Positions 29,440 through 56,522 are shown, counted from the stretch's first letter. The stretch is 64,000 bases of DNA from a virus (IMGVR_UViG_3300001528_000174:1-64000); one strand, 5' to 3'. The notes: a model not told the origin generated them from the sequence alone. A program made the numbers and translations.

Positions 29440-29841
29440 TTACGACAAGCGAATGTTACTGAAACGCTTGGCGTTGTTGAAATTCGCCAAGGTTTCAATA
29501 TCCACTGTAATAGTGGTTATTCCCTTGTCTGCGAGATACTTAGCACAAGCCTCAAGGTCATTGCAACCTGGACAAGATTGCGCTAAGATGCGAGTTACGT
29601 TAACAGTACGCTCACCCTCAAGACCCTCGATGGTGATACCTGATGCTGAAAGTACTATTACCGTTTGAGCAGGCTGTCCCGTCATCATATTGGCAGGGAT
29701 AGTACGCTCATTAGCATCAAGCTGCACGTTATCACCGAGTGTCATAACGATGTTGGCACTCTTGTTAAGGGCTGTCTCAATTTGGACAGCCGACATGGCG
29801 CTGTGGTTCACAGTGCCATTCTTTCCTACTGAAATTTTCAT
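29440..29841 (-). CDS. Hypothetical protein encoded by an anomalously GC-rich gene (~45-50% GC), probably acquired horizontally
   Basis: 133-aa intact ORF (MKISVGKNGTVNHSAMSAVQIETALNK...SCPGCNDLEACAKYLADKGITTITVD). Its composition contrasts sharply with the ~28% GC flanks. Confidence 0.45.
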   Translation of the reverse strand: MKISVGKNGTVNHSAMSAVQIETALNKSANIVMTLGDNVQLDANERTIPANMMTGQPAQTVIVLSASGITIEGLEGERTVNVTRILAQSCPGCNDLEACAKYLADKGITTITVDIETLANFNNAKRFSNIRLS

Positions 29842-30242
29842 TTTGTTTTGTTTTTTAAATTGTTGTTAATTTTTGTTATGGTTTTTATACCAAATATGTG
29901 GGGGGCTCTGGAGGGCAGTGAAAGCACGGGTAAATTACTAAATTACATTTAAATATTAACCTCTCCAATAAATATACTATTAAAATACAAATATAATAGT
30001 TTCTAAAAATAACCCCTAAAAAATTTGTATATCTGAATAAAATATTATAATAAAGTATGACAAATAAAACTATTATACAATACTTTAATTAAAAATTGAT
30101 CCAGGGGGGGCTATATAAATCTGCCCTAAAAAAATTTTAAAATTTTTATTTAAAAATTTCTAAATATTAACTTTTACAAAATTTAACTTTTACTATTTCA
30201 CTCCTCGACTATATTACTCGTGTAATCAAAAAGAAATAATAA

Positions 30243-30551
30243 ATGACGAAAGAACAACTAATACAAAGTATTGATGAACTTCCTGATTAGTATAATATAG
30301 GTTTATAGGTTATTGGAAATGTTATTCATATAACTTTAACTAAAAAGGTAGATGAATTTGAAGAATATTGTAATAAATTAGATGATGATATATTCAGTAA
30401 TGCTTGTTCAATATTTGGAATTATTTCGGATATATCTTTAGAAGAATTTTCTTCTAATTTAAATAATCCAAATAATAAAAAATATAAGCAAGAGTTTAAA
30501 CAAATAGTAAATTTTTTGAATGGATTTAACGAAACTAAAAAAGATTAGTAA
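30243..30551 (+). CDS. First TAG-recoded gene of the late region. Hypothetical protein of ~102 aa with 3 in-frame TAG codons.
   Basis: Hand translation from ATG 30243 reads MTKEQLIQSIDELPD(TAG)YNIGL(TAG)VIGNVIHITLTKK...NGFNETKKD(TAG) and ends at TAA. Confidence 0.4.
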
Positions 30552-30732
30552 TATTGCTCCTAATCTTACTATTAAGCAATTAGTAGAAATTATGGATATA
30601 AGTAATAACTCTTATATAACTATTATTGATAGTGCTATAAATGGTAAAATAAATAATAGAATTATAGACAATAGAACTACATCAACTGGTCTTGGTGATA
30701 TAGTATATGGAACTACTAGTGTAACAAAATAA
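30520..30732 (+). CDS. Hypothetical small protein
   Basis: 70-aa track ORF with no TAG, ending TAA. Confidence 0.35.
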   Translation: MDLTKLKKISNIAPNLTIKQLVEIMDISNNSYITIIDSAINGKINNRIIDNRTTSTGLGDIVYGTTSVTK

Positions 30733-30743
30733 TAGATAATTAT

Positions 30744-31034
30744 TCTCTTATGGTGTAATGGTTAGCACAGAAGACTCTTAAAATAGGAGCTTTATATGGC
30801 GACATATATTGGAACTCTTCCCCTAATAAACCGAAGCCTCGAATATAGTAATATATTCTTTGGTGAGGGCTTACTAAATTAACTTAATGTTATAAATGGC
30901 GTAGAGACTATATAGGGAAGCATCTCTAGCAGATGAAGAAATAGTCCAGACTACAACATCCTATTAGGATGGCTTATGTAAAAGTAAGAGTAGTATGAAA
31001 TCTTTTAGTCTGGGTTCGAATCCTAGTGGGAGAA
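30744..31034 (+). tRNA. Split tRNA. Read as an amber-suppressor tRNA with anticodon CUA, interrupted in the anticodon loop by a ~219-nt intron.
   Basis: 5' half at 30744-30778: acceptor tctctta, D arm gtgtaatggttagcac, anticodon-stem strand gaaga, then ctct. 3' half at 30998-31034: aaa, then tcttt which pairs with gaaga, then T arm ctggg-ttcgaat-cctag, then tgggaga which pairs with tctctta (two G-U pairs), then discriminator a. Joining ctct|aaa gives the loop cuCUAaa. Confidence 0.4.
30779..30997 (+). other. Candidate self-splicing (group I-like) intron within the tRNA anticodon loop
   Basis: A ~219-nt insertion between loop positions 35 and 36. The 5' exon ends in U and the intron ends in G (tatg|aaa), as group I splicing requires. 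Internal P-elements have not been verified. Confidence 0.3.
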
Positions 31035-31035
31035 C

Positions 31036-31317
31036 ATGATAGCAGCAATTTATGAATTAAATGGTAAGGTTTTAAAAACAACTAATCTTACTAAGAAATT
31101 AAAACGATTAAAATCAGAACCTAAGATTCTATTTCAATTAGAGAATGGAACAGAAGCTGATTTAGACCAATGGATTAAAGACAACCAAAATATAAAATCT
31201 AATTCAGAAGAAGATATTGAAATTAAAAAGTATCATTATAGAAATCCAATTACAGGATATACAATAACTTCTATATATGATAATCTAGATGTTAATGGTT
31301 ATATAAAAATTGATTAA
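31036..31317 (+). CDS. Hypothetical protein
   Basis: 93-aa track ORF ending TAA. Confidence 0.4.
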   Translation: MIAAIYELNGKVLKTTNLTKKLKRLKSEPKILFQLENGTEADLDQWIKDNQNIKSNSEEDIEIKKYHYRNPITGYTITSIYDNLDVNGYIKID

Positions 31318-31475
31318 TGACTAACAAAGAATTAAAAGACTTAAAGTCTAAAATGAACAAAGTACTTAATGAAGTACAGTAGATTATTGATACTATAGGA
31401 GATAATGATTTACAAGATAATCAATTAACTCTTAATTTTTGTGATAAGTTAAATGAATTATCTGTTGCTTATTAA
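31317..31475 (+). CDS. Hypothetical small protein with 1 in-frame TAG
   Basis: Reads MTNKELKDLKSKMNKVLNEVQ(TAG)IIDTIGDNDLQDNQLTLNFCDKLNELSVAY. The ATG overlaps the upstream stop as taATG. Confidence 0.3.
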
Positions 31476-31512
31476 TAAATATTTGGGGATGAGTATTTAT
31501 TAATTTAAAAAA

Positions 31513-31550
31513 AATAGCCGAGGCTTCTCATTTGAGAAACTTCGGCTATT
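31513..31550. terminator. Bidirectional rho-independent terminator between convergent plus and minus gene blocks
   Basis: Long near-perfect hairpin atagccgag-gcttctca-tt-tgagaaac-ttcggctat. It is flanked by aaaaaaaa upstream (a T-run for minus-strand transcripts) and tgtggtttt downstream. Confidence 0.5.
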
Positions 31551-31556
31551 GTGGTT

Positions 31557-32300
31557 TTAATGTCCCAACTCCTACAAAAACTATCTAAAATGGTAAGAAC
31601 TAGTCTGAGGATAATACTCCCGATTATTCATATTGTTATATATATCTATAAAACCTCCAATAGTACCTGTACTTACTCCTATAGGAGTGCCATATTTATT
31701 CCACTAATACTAAATATTACCAACTTTTCTTTGTGGTATTACAGAAAAATCAGTTTGCCAAGTATGTGTACGACTTTCCTAAAGTTTTTTATTCCATTTT
31801 CTATACTAAGGATATTTATAATAAGCTTTAGTATAATCATACTGAGGCTTAGAAGAATAGACATAATTACTAATAAGAGGACTATATTCTGTAGTCTATT
31901 TTACTTTAGGTCTAAATCCACTATACTTTACATATTTACCCCATCTCATAGGAGCCGTATGAGGGTTAATAACTTGATATTCAGGGAATCCCATGCTTGT
32001 ATAATCTCTAAAATCAAATCTAGGATTTGAACCTATTTCTAGCATATTAATAGCTCCTGACTAAGATCCTGAAGAGTAACTTTTTAATCCGATAGTAGGC
32101 TACTACAAAGCACCAAAATATCTACTTTCATTATATGCCTCTCCATAATATCCATTTATATTTAATTTTTTAGCTAACTCTGTAGTCTATTTGGTACCTT
32201 CTTCTATAGATAAAGTGCCCTAAGCTACTTTATTATTAATATCATCAAATAACTAATAATTTGGGTCTGTTCTCTATAATCTATTTTTTATAGAATTTAC
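31557..32300 (-). CDS. TAG-recoded minus-strand gene I, a virion-type protein. Its start is unresolved and it may be fused to gene H by a frameshift.
   Basis: Open frame with many in-frame TAGs ending at TAA (plus-strand tta at 31557-31559): ...GFPEYQVINPHTAPMRWGKYVKYSGFRPKVK(TAG)TTEYSPLISNYVYSSKPQYDYTKAYYKYP.... The frame stays open for ~100 codons upstream of the first ATG and overlaps the end of gene H. Confidence 0.3.
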
Positions 32301-34388
32301 ATATTCCTAAAAAGAATTAATACCAACTCTATTATTTAATATTGCCGTAACATCTCCTCCTAAACCTCCTCTTGAAGAATTTAATAACTAATTACCTCCA
32401 ATTCCTGAAGCCTATCCATTAAATGGAGCTACTACGGAACGAAGAGCATTATTTTCTGTAGTAATATCCCATTTTGGAGTAAATTTAGAAAACCAGAATG
32501 CTGTTCTTATTCCCATATTATCTGCTATTAAATTCTAATTAACTATAGATTCTACAGCATCGTCACTATAGCTCTATGGAATACCCCATATAGTTCTAGC
32601 TTCTTGAATTTCCTAAGGAGTTAACTTTAGTCTAGCCCAATCATTAGTAACAGCATTAGTATTCATTTTCTAGATTCTATTAGTTAGCCAAGGACTACTA
32701 AACATTTGAGCTTGTCTACCTACTTGCTTAGATTTAAAACCATTATAGTTATCCATAGCTACCATTAAATCATATATTCTAGGATGTTTCTATAATTGGG
32801 TATATAATTCTTCAGCTTTTATAGGTAGAGCCTACTCTGTAGTATTAAATACTTGACCTTTCTATATAGCTGTGTTACCTAGTGATTCCCACTATTTCTA
32901 TAACTATTTATATTTCTATGGGTATAGTCTAGAATAATAATTATGAGCTAACTATCCTGTAGCATATCCTTTAGCATCTTCTCCAATAGTCTAAACATCG
33001 ATTACATGATTCCCATCAGAGTTAAATACTTTGTTATTACCTTCTAAGGACTATTTAAAACCATTAGATGGTCCATATTGAGATCCTTCTTTACCAATAC
33101 TTTTCTAAACTGCTCCTAATCTAGATTTAGTTGTTAATAACTCTAAGTCGTGAGGTACTCCGTTAATAATTCCAGAACCATATAATCTTGTAGAACCTCC
33201 AACAAGGGCACTTCCATTTAAAGTAGTTTCTAAGTCTTTTAAATATTGACCTAATTCAGGAGAGCCTGAAGTAACTTTACCAGTAGTATAATTTATCTTA
33301 GGGCGAATAGTCACTTCCTAACCATTTAAATTAATAGTTGCATTAGGGTCTTTACGTGTCTTTAAATTTGCAGCATAGTTAGCATGCCACTATTTTCCAC
33401 TTTCAGCAGTAGCTTCCCAATCAATTTTAGGATTATGAGTTCTAATATATTTTATATCTCTATATTTAGATAGAGCATTAGGATAAGTCGCCTCTAAATC
33501 AGACATTTTATTTTGTAGCTACTATTCATAAGCTTCTTTAGATGCAGATCTAGCCTCACCTATACTACTCCAAGTATATTTTTTATTAATTATATCAGAT
33601 AATCTTTTAGCGGGTTTCCAAGATTTATAAATTCTATTAATACCATAAGGAGCAAAAGTAAAAGCGGTATTTAATCCAGCACTTGCATAATTATTATCTT
33701 TTACATCGTGATGTATATCAGCAAGATTCTAACCTATAAACATAGCATTACCTATACCTCTAGCAGTAGCACTAGGTAACATACTGAGTACCATAGAAGT
33801 ACCAGTATTTATATCATGTATAGATTTTAATAATCTATAACCTAAGGGAGCATCCCACTAAGAATTATTTATAAGGTTTCCATTATTATCTTTTAAATAT
33901 TGCCCGGTTTCTAAATCTTTTAAAAATGGATCTTCAGGATTATAATCTATAGATCTATCAGAGTGTACAGTGGGAGATACTTTATAAGTACTTCTATACT
34001 CATTTTCAGCTTTATCCCTAGCTTTTTTAGCTAATACTTTACTCCCAGAACTTTTTGAAGACTCTAACTCAGCATCAGCACGTGCTTTATTAATATTTAG
34101 TTTATGTGCATTACTAAAACCCTAGTTTACTTCCTATTTATTAGTTCCTCCAGTATTTATTAATCTATTTTTTCTATACGTAGGGGCATAAAATGTTTTT
34201 ACTCTAGTACTATTATTCTATTCAATATGCTGAGGCACCACTTCTACCTAAGGTCTCTATAATTTCTAAGTACTCTTCTAAAGACCCTAATATAAAGATT
34301 TTACTGAAGCACCATTATCTTTGGAATTAAATAAATTTATTCCTCCCCAAGACTATTTATAATTATTATCTTTTATCTATACAGCCAT
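32297..34388 (-). CDS. TAG-recoded minus-strand gene H, a large (~696 aa) hypothetical virion protein
   Basis: Hand translation from the ATG (plus-strand cat at 34386-34388) through the track fragment 33105..33314 to TAA. It contains more than 30 in-frame TAGs and sequence such as ...NAMFIGQNLADIHHDVKDNNYASAGLNTAFTFAPYGINRIYKSW.... Confidence 0.4.
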
Positions 34389-50935: not shown

Positions 50936-52239
50936 TGGGACTTAAATATTAGGGTGACTCAACTCTTGGAGTTTCATTAACTATGCAAACTCCAAAACCT
51001 TTAGATGCAAGATTAGTTGTAGATACTAGAGCAGATTTATATACTATTCCTGCAAAATATGCTTATAATGGAATGCCTGTAGTATGTGTTGCAGATGGTA
51101 ATATTTATACGTTAATAGATAAAAATAACATAAAAGAAGCTGTTGGATGGAAGGCTTCTTACGAATCTATCTAGATAATAACTTGTACAGAGTAGGAATA
51201 TAAATAGTGGTAGAGCAATACTAACGAGAACTTTACTCCTAAAGATGATAGTTAGACTTGGTTACATCAAGATACTTATTATTACATATATGAAGGTAGC
51301 ATTGATGATAAGGGTCAATATTATGTTTCATATTCTTAGTTTGAAGACTTAACTAATTAGGTAAATAAGAAAGCTACTATATCATCTTTAAATAATTTAT
51401 CTGAAAAAACTGATAAAGCTCTACAAGATTTAGCCAATGTATATGCTACTCTTGATGATATAGATAGTTCTAATCCAGATTCTAAACTATCTAAAACTCT
51501 TGATAATTACTACACTAAAGAAAAAGTAGATGATACTTTTGTAACCAAAGAGAGCCTTAGAGGTGAAGGTATAGAAGGAGATGATTTTGTATTTGTAACA
51601 TAGACTACCTATAATAAAGACCAGCAGAATCTAGAAGAGTATAAGAAACAAACTTTAGAAGAATTATTCAATAAAGTTGATACTAACAGTGATGCAGAAT
51701 TAAAGTCTATATCTAATAATGGTAATAAATTAGTTATTAATAAATAGCTTACTATCAATGGGGATTCTTTAGCTTTAGATAAGAATGTCCCTAAAATAGT
51801 AGTGATGGATTAGCAGGAATACGATAACTTAGAAACTAAAGACCCTGACATTTATTATATGACTCATGGTACGGAATCGGATAATGGAGGTATGATTACT
51901 AGTGAGTTTTTAGAAACTAATTATTATAGTTAGGCATAGGTAATTGATTTATTTAATCAAGCTTTAAATAATTTATTTACTGTTTCTGGAAAGGTATTAG
52001 AATTAGGAACAAGTGCATTAAATATGATTTTGGTAGATAAACCTACTGATTAGATTTTTGAATATGATGGAGAAATTCATACTTTAAATAGTACTGATAA
52101 TTATAATGTCGTAGGTGAAGGAGGGTCAGAACCAGGAACTTATAGATTTAAAGTGGCTTTAAGAGCTGGTAAAAGATGGAAGGATAATACCAATACTCCG
52201 ATATTTATAACTTATATTATTAATTAGAAAACTGAATAA
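50935..52239 (+). CDS. TAG-recoded tail-fibre-associated protein of ~434 aa
   Basis: Includes track ORF 50983..51174 in frame. Ends TAA, overlapping the ATG of the DGR target as taATG. Confidence 0.4.
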
Positions 52240-54293
52240 TGCAAACATTAAGTCAATTAAAAATTGGTGATATTATATATGATTTAGCTGCTAAATTTGA
52301 TGCAAATGATAATAATATCCAAGATACTTATTCTACAAAAGAATATGTATCATAGAAAATATCTGAACTAGTAGGATCAGCACCTGAAACTTTAGATACT
52401 TTAAATGAATTAGCAGAAGCTTTAGGAAAAGATCCTAATTTTGCAACTACTATAGCCACTCAATTAGGAAATAAAGTAGATAAAGTAGAAGGTAAATAGT
52501 TATCTACAGAAGATTTTACAACTGCTTTGAAAGTATTATTGGAAAGTCTTCCAGAGCAAATAACTAACAAGTATAATAAACCTTCAGACGGTATTCCTAA
52601 AATAGATTTATCAAAAGAAGTTTAGAACTCTTTAAATAAAGCAGATAGTGCTATACAAGATATTTCTAGTAAATTAGATACTTCTATTTATGAAAGTGAT
52701 AAAGAGACTTTTGCTTTAAAAACAGAAATACCCACTACATTACCAGCTAGTGATGTTAGTACTTGGGCTAAAGCTTCTACGAAACCTGTATATACTGCTG
52801 AAGAAATTGGTTTAGATAAAGTGAATAATACCTCCGATATAGATAAACCAATATCAACAGCTACTTAGACAGCGTTAAATTTAAAAGTAGATAAAGTAGA
52901 AGGTAAATAGTTATCTACTAACGATTACTCTAATGAAGAAAAAGAAAAAGTACAGTAGTTAGGAGCAAGTGTACAATCATTAACTTAGAGTGTAGCTGAT
53001 ATTCAAGGTATAGAAGAATTATTATCTTACGGTATTAGTTTTGATTCTACAGTAGCTGACCCTAAATGTACTAGAGTCGGTAATCCTCTACTACATAAAT
53101 CTTTACCTATACAATCTTAGTACAAAGGTTGTATTGTTAAAGATGGAGTTTTACAATATTATTTGGACCCAAATGATTGGTCTAAAAAAGCGAACTCTGG
53201 AGTTATTGCTGGAAATAATGGCACAGAAGCAGGTTCAGGAGTAACTGTTGGTAACTCTTCTTAGGAGGATGCTGTTTTGGATGGTACAGATGGAGAAGTA
53301 TGTGTGGAAACTCCAGAATTTTATTTAAAATGTACTACTGTAGGGAATATTACTACTATTCGCGAATCATTACAATAGATAGATGCTGATTATAAGAAAA
53401 TCCCATCTATGTTTATAGACGCTTATAGAGGTACTGTAAATGACTCTAAATTACGCTCTGTAGTAAATACTAGTGCAGAATTTAGGGGAGGTGCTAATAA
53501 CTCAAGTTATGATTCTTATTTAGAATCCGACCCATTTAAATGTTTACTTGGAAAGCCTAGAACCAATATCACAAGAGCAAATTTCAGAACTTATGCTAGA
53601 AATATTGGTAAGGAATTATTATCTTATGATCAATACAAAGCAATATTCTATTGGAATTATATAATTGAGTATGCTAATTTTAATTCTTAGTTAGATTATA
53701 ATGCCAATTTAACTTCTGAAGGCTATCATCAAGGGGGTCTTGGAGCAGGACTTACGACATGGGATTGGTCAAGTTGGAGTACTTATAATGGTAATAATCC
53801 TATTACTCCATGTGGTTACGGTAATAATATTGGTAATTTTACAGGCATTAAAACTATCACAGCAGGCAATAAGACTTTCTCAATGCCTCGTTGGAGAGGA
53901 TTTGATAATCCTTTTGGTGATATTTGGACAAATGTTGATGGATGTGTTTTGAAGATTCCAAATATGTATATAATATTAAATAAAGATGATTATACAGACA
54001 ATTTAGATAATATTAAGTACAGTCGTATGTATTCTAACTTACCTACCTCAGAAGGTTATATAAAATCATTTTAGTTAGGTGAATATGCAGATATGGTTCC
54101 TAAAACTGTCGGCGGTAACGCTTCTATATATATGTGTGATTATTATTGGCAAAATTCTAACTTAAATACACTGCTGGTGGGGGGCAGCGTGGATAATGGT
54201 TCTAGTGCGGGTCTCACCTACTTCAACGGCGACCTTTCCGTCGGCAGCACTTACGCCACTGTCGGCGCGCGCGGCGTATGTTTGAAGAAGTAA
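52239..54293 (+). CDS. Tail fibre / receptor-binding protein of 684 aa that is the DGR target gene. It carries a C-terminal C-type-lectin-fold variable region and is TAG-recoded.
   Basis: The length 2055 nt equals 685 codons. Track fragments 53409.., 53883.. and 54093..54293 all fall in frame 0 and are linked by TAG codons. The N-terminus has a tail-fibre motif SAPETLDTLNELAEALGKDPNFATT and repeats KVDKVEGK(TAG)LSTEDFT / LSTNDYS. The C-terminus ...GGSVDNGSSAGLTYFNGDLSVGSTYATVGARGVCLKK is encoded by VR1. Confidence 0.7.
54180..54275 (+). repeat. DGR variable repeat VR1 (96 nt), inside the 3' end of the target gene
   Basis: Aligns ungapped with TR 54486-54581. Every one of the ~22 mismatches is at a TR adenine (A to G/T/C in VR), the signature of DGR adenine mutagenesis. 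Confidence 0.8.
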
Positions 54294-54485
54294 TATAATA
54301 CATAGATACAATATAAATTTTAAAATATAGTTGCTGAATATAGTTGTAATTCGGCGGCGTCAGATAAAATACACTGGGTAAAGCTACCAGGGGAAGCGTA
54401 AATTTTGATACTACAGAATCCCAAAGCCTTGGTATAAATAACTGATATAATAGATTTTCCGCTATAGAGAAAAACTAGGCTAGTA

Positions 54486-54581
54486 GGAGGCAACGTGAAT
54501 AATGGTTCTAATGCAGGTCTCACCAACTTCAACAGCAACAATTCCGTCAGCAACACTAACACCAATGTCAGCGCACGCAGC
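54486..54581 (+). repeat. DGR template repeat (TR)
   Basis: The sequence ggaggcaacgtgaataatggttctaatgcaggtctcaccaacttcaacagcaacaattccgtcagcaacactaacaccaatgtcagcgcacgcagc is rich in AAC codons. It is non-coding in its context and sits 165 bp upstream of the RT. Confidence 0.8.
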
Positions 54582-54746
54582 TTATTATTATAGTTAAAAA
54601 TATTATAGTCCGTTTTATGAGAATATTGTGCTATTTATACCATGCCTCTTGGCAAAAAATAACGTGGATTATAAGTCTTCATATCTGGCTTAGTAGTTAC
54701 GGCGAAAAATCAGAATTTATAATAATACTAATTTAAAATAAGAAAA

Positions 54747-56006
54747 ATGAAACGGAAAGGTGGCTTAATAAAAGAAATTAGCAGTTTTTCTAATGTAAGA
54801 TTAGCTGATAATTATGCAAGACAAAATACTAAAAGTAAACATGAAGTATATGTGCACGACAGTAACCAAGATGAAGAAAATATTATGTTATCAGAGAGTT
54901 TAAAAAATGGAACTTATAAAACCTCTAAATATAAAACTTTCTCTATTTTTGAACCTAAAGAAAGATTAATATTTAAATTACCTTATTATCCCGATAGGAT
55001 AGCACATCATTCCATAATGAATGTGCTAAAACCTATTTGGATAAAAACTTTTATACATCAAACTTATTCTAGTATAGAGGGAAGAGGTATTCATATGTTA
55101 AAACATGAATTATATAAAGTATTAAAAGAACACCCTGAAGAAACTACATATTGTTTAAAAATGGATGTGCATAAGTTTTACCCATCTTTAAATCATGAAA
55201 TATTAAAAACTTAGGTACGAAAGAAAATAAAAGATCCAAAAACATTAGTACTATTAGATGAAATAATAAATTCTACAGATTCTCTAACTCCTGGAGTTGG
55301 AGTTCCTATAGGAAATTATTTATCTCAATATTTTGCTAATGTATATTTATCTGAGTTTGACCATATTATGAAAGAAAAATGGAAATGTAAATTTTATTTT
55401 CGATATGCTGATGATATGGTAGTATTATCTAGTAGTAAGGAGTGGTTACATAATATTTTAGATAAAATAAAAAATTATTTTGAAGTTAACTTAAAACTCG
55501 AATTAAAACCTAATTATCAGATATTTCCAGTGGAATCTAGAGGTATAGATTTTGTTGGATATGTATTTAGACATGATTATGTACTACTTAGAAAATCAAT
55601 TAAAAAGAAACTTAATAAATTAGTATCTAAATATTAGAAAAAGAAAATTGATAAAGAGACTTTTAAAAAATCTTTAATGTCTTATAAAGGATGGCTATAG
55701 CATTGTGATGCTATACATTTAGCTAATTCTATATATAATAAAACTAAAATAAGAGTCTTTATATGGAATGGAAAAAAAGTAAATATATCTTCTTTCTATA
55801 ATAAATATATATGGGTAATTCGATTAACTAGACATAAGAAATTCTTTGAAATATGTTTTAAATATAAAGGTCAAAAATATATAACTAAATCTCAAAATTG
55901 GTTATTATATAACAAGATAAAATTTAGAAAACGACCATTTTATTTTAAATATGACAGAAATAAATTCAAACTCACCTCTCTAGAAGATTTAGAGATTGGG
56001 AAATAA
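54747..56006 (+). CDS. DGR reverse transcriptase of ~419 aa, itself containing 3 in-frame TAG codons
   Basis: Track fragments 54747..55214 and 55368..55637 share a frame. Motifs are FEPKERLIFKLPYYPDRIAHH (RT domain 1-2), GVPIGNYLSQYFANVYL, and the catalytic FRYADDMVVL (YxDD). A C-terminal extension SLMSYKGWL(TAG)HCD reaches TAA at 56004-56006. Confidence 0.85.
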
Positions 56007-56300
56007 TACTTATTATTATAATTATATAATTGAAGTAACTGAAATAATTACTTAGGAAAATGAAACTGTTCCTTTATATAGGTATATTCAGGTACATCTT
56101 AATGGGCAGCCTGAATATAAGCAAATAGTACAAGCAGTTTTAAGAGAATATATTAGTCAAAATGAAGAATTTGATTTAATAAATTCCTATAATAGTTATC
56201 AGAATAAATTGATAGATGATGAATCTGTTGTTACTAAGTATTTAAATTATTTAAAATTAGTTTAGGAAATTAAAACTAATATTAAAAAAGACATAAACAA

Positions 56301-56522
56301 ATGATATATCGAAACGGTAAATTAATTACAGAAGTTCATTAGAATCTTAAAGAATTTATCAATTAGGTATAGCAAATTGTTTAGAGAGATATTGGTGCAA
56401 TATATAAAGGTTCTTAGTTAGTCTGGGTAACTGTTTATAATGCTATTAAAAGTTGTTTTGGTAGTGGTACATGGTTACAAGATAAACCTTGGTTAGATAA
56501 TGACTTTTGGAAAAATAATTAA
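56301..56522 (+). CDS. Small hypothetical protein of ~73 aa with several in-frame TAGs
   Basis: Reads MIYRNGKLITEVH(TAG)NLKEFIN(TAG)V(TAG)QIV(TAG)RDIGAIYKGS(TAG)LVWVTVYNAIKSCFGSGTWLQDKPWLDNDFWKNN. Confidence 0.25.

Follow-up and report, generated by a model that had tools for sequence, protein, structure and literature searches.

The window that we analysed, 64,000 nucleotides of viral DNA (IMGVR_UViG_3300001528_000174:1-64000), carries an active DGR whose reverse transcriptase (RT) gene contains three in-frame TAG codons, and comparison with homologous RT genes indicates that these codons mean glutamine. Our best explanation of the whole, to which we assign a probability of about 0.8, is a recoded gut crAss-like phage with an active, Avd-less DGR in which the TAGs of the RT are read as Gln. 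Under this explanation, a large (~175-180 kb), AT-rich crAss-like phage would use the standard code in a block of non-structural and tRNA genes (1-31 kb) and would translate TAG as Gln in the genes for structure, lysis, and tail (31.5-64 kb). The tail module would contain a compact, Avd-less DGR, arranged as a tail-fibre target with its variable repeat (VR1), the template repeat (TR), and the RT. TR RNA would be reverse-transcribed with adenine-specific errors, and the cDNA would replace VR1 and, at least historically, the remote VR2. If suppression is on only late, retrohoming would be confined to late infection. The TAGs in the RT would be a by-product of its location and expression in the recoded late module, not a dedicated control device.

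The RT gene and its landmarks are as follows.

54747..56006, plus strand: DGR reverse transcriptase gene, 419 codons and a TAA stop, with three in-frame TAGs
55212..55214, plus strand: TAG codon 156, within RVT_1 and 5' of GxxxSQ and YADD
55311..55328, plus strand: GNYLSQ (the GxxxSQ motif), aa 189-194, from sequence and alignment
55404..55415, plus strand: YADD catalytic motif, aa 220-223, from sequence and alignment
55635..55637, plus strand: TAG codon 297, in the C-terminal region at a variable position
55698..55700, plus strand: TAG codon 318 (GWL-Q-HC), from translation

Translation of 54747-56006 revealed three internal stops, all of them TAG, and no TAA or TGA before the terminal TAA. 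In each of its other five frames, this DNA has 17-57 TAA/TGA codons, and shuffled versions of the gene had a mean of 33.7 in-frame TAA/TGA codons, with none at all in 0 of 20,000 shuffles. The open frame is not due to chance. When TAG was read through, the product matched Pfam RVT_1 at aa 73-272 (E 5.5e-16), a match that spans TAG156, as well as phrog_1423, “Reverse transcriptase” (E 1.4e-113). An RVT_1 domain, IGNYLSQ at aa 188-194, and a YADD box make this an RT of the DGR type; GxxxSQ is the motif typical of DGR RTs. Protein searches returned more than 6,500 homologues at E <= 1e-10, and the best 120 were mostly 390-430 aa long and covered 90-100% of the query. We aligned 32 of the best homologues. 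All 32 are collinear across the three TAG sites, none of which coincides with a break or a domain boundary, and G189, N190, L192, S193, and Q194 are invariant among them.

The frame proposed in the original prediction, running through 55212-55214 and 55635-55637, is thus the frame of collinear single proteins in the homologue alignment. That prediction had placed the TAGs at about 55212, 55635, and 55703; the first two positions stand, and the third TAG is at 55698, about 5 nt from the expected site. It had also proposed that the protein would be truncated at ~155 aa, ahead of YADD, unless TAG were decoded, and this agrees with what we found, as TAG156 precedes both GxxxSQ and YADD. A stop at codon 156 would lose GNYLSQ (aa 189-194) together with YADD (aa 220-223). 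Because the first TAG comes before both motifs, no active RT would be made without TAG decoding, and DGR activity therefore depends on a source of amber suppression.

A different reading of the same DNA is that the DGR is a fossil and its RT either a pseudogene or a pair of independent genes (54747-55214 and 55368-56006). The standard code does break the ORF at codon 156, as this reading requires. Against it, the RVT_1 domain extends over that break, every aligned homologue is a single collinear protein, and 419 codons contain no TAA or TGA where ~34 would be expected. A hypothetical product starting at Met208 (55368) would be only 89 aa long before it reached the next TAG. Relatives swap these TAGs with CAA/CAG, and VR1 is diversifying at TR adenines in otherwise near-identical genomes, both of which are described below. 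A split or decayed RT is hence scarcely credible. The RT is one 419-aa protein encoded by one gene.

The meaning of TAG was addressed by a codon comparison limited to the RT, using the DNA of homologues from six contigs. Their TAG counts were 0, 0, 3, 3, 7, and 9, at mostly different positions, and only position 297 was common to two RT clades. Four genomes with a 94%-identical RT kept all three TAGs and had no in-frame TAA or TGA. The RT homologue P0007, which is 78% identical and contains no TAG, has CAA opposite TAG156, CAG opposite TAG318, and CGA at 297, and P0011 (67% identical, seven TAGs) has CAG at 318 and TAG at 297. Conserved glutamines are also encoded by TAG in relatives: Gln258, a residue of an NYQ(I/V)FPV motif and shared by at least 90% of the aligned sequences, is TAG in P0011, and both Gln258 and the invariant Gln194 of GxxxSQ are TAG in P0017, which has nine TAGs. 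Because TAG156 and TAG318 align with CAA and CAG, and because relatives encode the conserved Gln194 and Gln258 by TAG, the codon comparison indicates that TAG means Gln in the RT.

The elements of the DGR upstream of the RT are as follows.

52239..54293, plus strand: DGR target gene 1, encoding a 684-aa tail (fibre) protein, with 12 in-frame TAGs and VR1 at its 3' end
54170..54279, plus strand: VR1, variable repeat, encoding the last ~35 aa of target 1
54260..54276, plus strand: GC-rich palindrome GTCGGCGCGCGCGGCG, candidate IMH/hairpin, at the 3' end of VR1
54476..54585, plus strand: TR, non-coding template repeat of 110 nt with 36 A, between the target and the RT

The product of 52239-54293 matched phrog_5302, “tail protein” (E 1.8e-91), and tail-fibre families over its N-terminus. 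About 14 TAGs had been claimed for this gene and we counted 12; with three TAGs in one gene and 12 in the other, the RT and its main target do both need TAG decoding to reach full length, as had been proposed. VR1 aligned with TR without gaps, and 21 of 21 mismatches, within TR 54479-54581, fell at TR adenines. The repeat ends 14 nt ahead of the stop codon of the target ORF. We compared the window with L004-L007, four genomes related to it at 94% that come from different samples, and TR was 100% identical in all five. VR1 differed at 23 columns among them, comprising 23 of the 36 TR adenines and 0 of the 74 other positions (Fisher 8e-15), and the 600 nt upstream of VR1 were 99.8-100% identical among L004-L007. 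The DGR is active, with ongoing A-directed diversification of VR1 in natural populations. All five genomes carry the three TAGs in the RT. Because the DGR is active, these genomes provide strong indirect evidence that the full-length, recoded RT is produced in nature, and therefore that TAG is read through.

The palindrome GTCGGCGCGCGCGGCG was invariant in 5 of 5 genomes, although TR has A at three of its positions, and we infer from this that it is a candidate for an IMH-like boundary element. A Pfam query for a C-type-lectin-fold variable domain found no domain in target 1 or target 2. No Avd-like gene was found either, and the stretch from the target to the RT contains no ORF; a DGR accessory protein (Avd or HRDC-type) is common but not universal. 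A scan for sigma-70 promoters and terminators around the cassette found promoter-like sites no more often than in shuffled sequences. The scan is uninformative because crAss-like phages use their own RNA polymerase.

The RT lies in a genome that is recoded in blocks. The window has a GC content of 30%, and its ORF coverage rises twofold, from 28.9 kb to 60.5 kb, when TAG is read through. Minus-strand genes at 1-31 kb contain 6 TAGs in 5,801 codons. At 31.5-64 kb, where genes lie on both strands, there are 271 TAGs in the 9,631 codons of 24 genes, and TAG makes up 55% of Gln codons. These blocks, which we call early and late on the basis of gene content and TAG use, differ in TAG density as 1.0 vs 28 per 1,000 codons. 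The early block encodes a nicotinamide phosphoribosyltransferase fragment, an ATPase, and an SPFH/flotillin protein, along with 14 ordinary tRNAs, three aberrant ones, and one tmRNA. TAGs in the late block include 13 in TerL, 37 in the portal gene, and 52 in the gene of a 2,077-aa protein, and a transglycosylase-like protein and tail proteins are TAG-bearing as well. Two non-structural genes of the late block, for an exonuclease and a GroES-like protein, are TAG-free; judging by these two, TAG use follows gene class, not only position.

Three of the six early-block TAGs lie near the end of an ORF and are followed 1-20 codons later by a back-up TAA or TGA.

4121-4564, minus strand: ORF apparently ending at TAG, standard-code block
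19833-20315, minus strand: ORF apparently ending at TAG, standard-code block
20682-20984, minus strand: ORF apparently ending at TAG, standard-code block

Because of this position and the stop downstream, these three TAGs look like genuine terminators. Once amber suppression is on, the three proteins would be only slightly extended.

By DNA and TerL similarity, the phage belongs with the crAss-like phages, at a distance from the classical ~100-kb families. Over ~75% of its length, its TerL shares 25-28% identity with Crassvirales TerL; with that of the unclassified MT835539 it shares 89%. The closest DNA similarity of the DGR region is to crAss phages. The contigs of close relatives are 174-180 kb long. 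Taking a crAss-type TerL, portal, and tail module and a genome of 145-192 kb as the criterion for the Zeta type, the phage appears to fit the large “Zeta” crAss-like group (PMC7886860).

Published work on crAss-like phages describes systems like this one. In both Yutin et al. 2021 (PMC7886860) and Borges et al. (bioRxiv 10.1101/2021.08.26.457843), TAG is reassigned to Gln in late genes, and the systems resemble the window in their standard-code replication or early block, recoded structural and lysis block, low GC, and TAG opposite Gln. Both studies propose that proteins with in-frame recoded stops are blocked until the code changes. Both also report that a suppressor tRNA is not always detectable in recoded phages. 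Terms for DGR or reverse transcriptase occur zero times in either text.

Our own search for a suppressor covers the 64 kb of the window, and about 110 kb of the genome lies beyond it. ARAGORN (default settings, with introns, and with -ps90) and Rfam (gathering threshold and E <= 1) found no tRNA-CUA in these 64 kb, where a regular expression for a 5-bp stem around YT-CTA-RN had no match, no intron-bearing tRNA was found, and no Rfam match to a group I intron was obtained. ARAGORN also found no tRNA-CUA in the relatives (loci L003-L010, 50 kb of MT835539, and L012). The original prediction tied retrohoming to a suppressor tRNA being “expressed or spliced”; this wording is without support, because the search of the window found neither a tRNA-CUA nor an intron-bearing tRNA, and no group I intron match.

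The failure to find a phage suppressor tRNA in the window would also agree with an arrangement in which TAG is Gln throughout infection, owing to a host or constitutive suppressor. There would then be no switch and no coupling, and the lack of TAG in early genes would be caused otherwise. Host-encoded or highly divergent suppressors are raised as possibilities in PMC7886860. The sharp contrast between the two blocks speaks against constant suppression, as do the three early ORFs that apparently end at TAG with a back-up stop, and the hosts of such phages are inferred to use the standard code (bioRxiv 10.1101/2021.08.26.457843). We regard constant suppression as distinctly unlikely, and our preferred reading remains a phage that recodes TAG in its late genes.

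Three odd tRNA-like genes and a tmRNA lie in the early block.

16249-16632, minus strand: tmRNA, Rfam RF00023, 54 bits vs a gathering threshold of 47
22268-22389, minus strand: tRNA-like gene with well-formed acceptor, D, and T arms, Rfam 39.7 bits
22720-22803, minus strand: tRNA-like gene, Rfam tRNA, 46.5 bits, paralogous to the next
23234-23314, minus strand: tRNA-like gene, Rfam tRNA, 39.9 bits, paralogous to the previous

The paralogous pair has normal acceptor, D, and T arms and an anticodon arm consisting of a 4-bp stem and a ~19-nt loop. ARAGORN calls the two Trp with an intron and Val with an intron in the window, and “tRNA-Stop(tta)” in a relative. Counterparts occur in L011 (6356-6440 and 6869-6950), and in the 82%-identical MT835539 the arms of the pair are conserved and the loop sequence is almost entirely different. 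The gene at 22268-22389 has ~48 extra nt between its D arm and T arm, and no clean anticodon arm can be drawn for it. CTA is absent from the anticodon region of all three. It is conceivable, at long odds, that read-through comes not from a conventional tRNA-CUA but from an unrecognised factor, such as one of the tRNA-like genes at 22720-22803 and 23234-23314 with their fast-evolving loop, with the TAGs in the RT timing retrohoming to the making of progeny genomes. The tag peptide of the tmRNA was predicted by ARAGORN, at a lowered threshold, as GRVNNSSVSYAVAA followed by a stop. That a phage with a reassigned stop codon also carries an RNA for ribosome rescue may deserve attention.

Whether the TAGs of the RT do more than follow the code of the late block can be judged from their number and distribution. 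They could form a selected translational gate, which keeps retrohoming off until the suppressor is active and ties tropism diversification to the late state. Consistent with such a gate, the four 94%-identical genomes have kept all of the TAGs, the first TAG is located before the catalytic motifs, and the TAG-free exonuclease and GroES-like genes of the plus-strand block show TAG use tracking gene class. A similar argument has been made for an intron's homing endonuclease that is recoded and is described as kept back until late (Borges et al., bioRxiv 10.1101/2021.08.26.457843). Set against this, TAG accounts for 3 of the 10 Gln codons of the RT, a share that is not above the 55% block average (binomial P(X<=3) = 0.11), and the number and positions of TAGs vary by lineage. 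The same figure was considered as a sign that the RT is TAG-depleted through recent acquisition, which was not significant in this genome (p = 0.11).

A further point against a gate comes from a relative whose DGR region is as follows.

L016, 482-4787 of ENA ERZ27279233 k141_165658: recoded relative with a TAG-free DGR RT

Its RT has 0 TAG/15 Gln codons, and the next large gene has 12 TAG/35 Gln codons. Because this relative is recoded yet its RT is TAG-free, amber dependence is not a conserved property of these DGRs. A standard-code phage may have been the recent source of the L016 RT, or selection may disfavour TAG in it. Either drift or recent import of cassettes from standard-code phages would produce such a gene, and this one relative hints that TAG in the RT genes of recoded phages is neutral or depleted. 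A selected gate is therefore unlikely, and from these comparisons the TAG pattern of the RT looks like drift after recoding, not a conserved gate. Amber dependence is not special to the DGR, as the RT is recoded like its neighbours; its need for amber decoding would come from its membership of the recoded late module. Retrohoming restricted to the late phase would be a corollary of the published model in which recoding acts as a timer.

The second target lies far from the RT, in the standard-code block.

1624..2235, minus strand: DGR target gene 2, 203 aa, TAG-free, standard-code block
1713..1807 (about), minus strand: VR2, remote variable repeat, in the C-terminal third of ORF 1624-2235

The remote VR2 was proposed to lie in a standard-code gene without TAG, and this is correct: ORF 1624-2235 on the minus strand has zero TAGs. 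VR2 differs from TR by 24 mismatches at adenines, 7 elsewhere, and a 15-nt deletion relative to TR. The 203-aa protein had no match in Pfam or PHROG, and its AlphaFold model was unusable (mean pLDDT 45). Its homologues, found on many 180-kb contigs, are near-identical outside the VR2-encoded segment, and this confinement of variation to one segment has the appearance of a typical DGR footprint. The window's copy is alone in the protein alignment in having a 5-aa gap in that segment. Because of the deletion and the seven non-adenine mismatches, the VR2 copy of this genome may no longer be renewed from TR. This copy may have escaped TR renewal, or the deletion may have arisen during retrohoming.

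The prototype DGR is that of Bordetella phage BPP-1 (Brt/Avd/TR/VR-Mtd). As in the window, its adenine-specific TR-to-VR retrohoming enters a tail-fibre receptor-binding gene at the 3' end, and the VR has a GC-rich element at its own 3' end. The window differs from BPP-1 in that no Avd-like gene was found, a second VR lies 52 kb away on the opposite strand, and the RT and target need amber suppression.

The closest GenBank relative, MT835539.1 (~82% DNA identity, collinear over 44-64 kb), is without the entire DGR module (window 52943-56269 vs L003 6943-7024): after the first 704 nt of the tail-fibre gene homology breaks off, to begin again at 56270, and 81 nt stand in place of 3.3 kb. Because MT835539.1 lacks the whole module, the C-terminal receptor-binding part, TR, and RT together appear to be a swappable cassette. 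The TerL of MT835539.1 falls into three tblastn pieces over 4.5 kb (29742-34313), and that of the window (42875-45307) is uninterrupted over 2.4 kb, which suggests that the MT835539.1 gene has introns or inteins, as reported for Zeta crAss-like phages.

One further ORF adjoins the RT.

55951-56304, plus strand: 117-aa ORF with 4 TAGs, overlapping the RT 3' end by 56 nt

A Pfam search with its product found no match. Its homologues overlap the RT end in cr7_1 and cr55_1, and we considered whether it encodes a DGR accessory protein; this was rejected, as homologues trail tail genes without an RT in IAS virus and cr111_1. Judging by these homologues, it is a conserved crAss tail-module gene, with the RT inserted on its upstream side. 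The layout in cr7_1 (NC_055895.1, Burzaovirus coli, Suoliviridae) is the same as in the window, with a tail protein, a TR region, an RT, and an overlapping small ORF downstream that is homologous to 55951-56304. In its RefSeq annotation, 3 in-frame TAGs interrupt the RT CDS and 15 in-frame stops the tail protein. Unlike the window, cr7_1 is a ~104-kb phage of another crAss family, with ~68% DNA identity in the RT and with its TAGs elsewhere.

A close published parallel is a 2025 paper about Zeta crAss-like phages (PMC12386605), for which we draw on portions of the text. These report DGRs in 18 of 43 Zeta crAss-like genomes, seven of them with amber suppression in the RT gene, and most without Avd. 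As in the window, the genomes described there are large (~156-189 kb), have many tRNAs, and use block-wise TAG or TGA recoding, and the DGRs have tail-fibre targets, a GxxxSQ RT, and mostly no Avd. In those portions, the genomes combining amber suppression with a DGR all have a tRNA-CUA, whereas none was found in this 64-kb window, and the timing of retrohoming is not discussed. An explicit limit of retrohoming to the recoded state was not encountered in the literature compared, including these portions. The amber-recoded DGR RT is a further example of a situation already described, because late-gene TAG recoding and amber codons in Zeta DGR RTs have both been published.

For annotation, the consequence is that DGR finders and gene callers using table 11 will break up or overlook both the RT and its target. 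With TAG translated as Gln, a complete DGR with two targets comes to light, and it is demonstrably active. Mutagenic retrohoming thus works in a genome with amber-recoded late genes, and the phage's diversifier therefore depends on its code switch, a dependence that follows from late-gene TAG recoding and amber-bearing Zeta DGR RTs.
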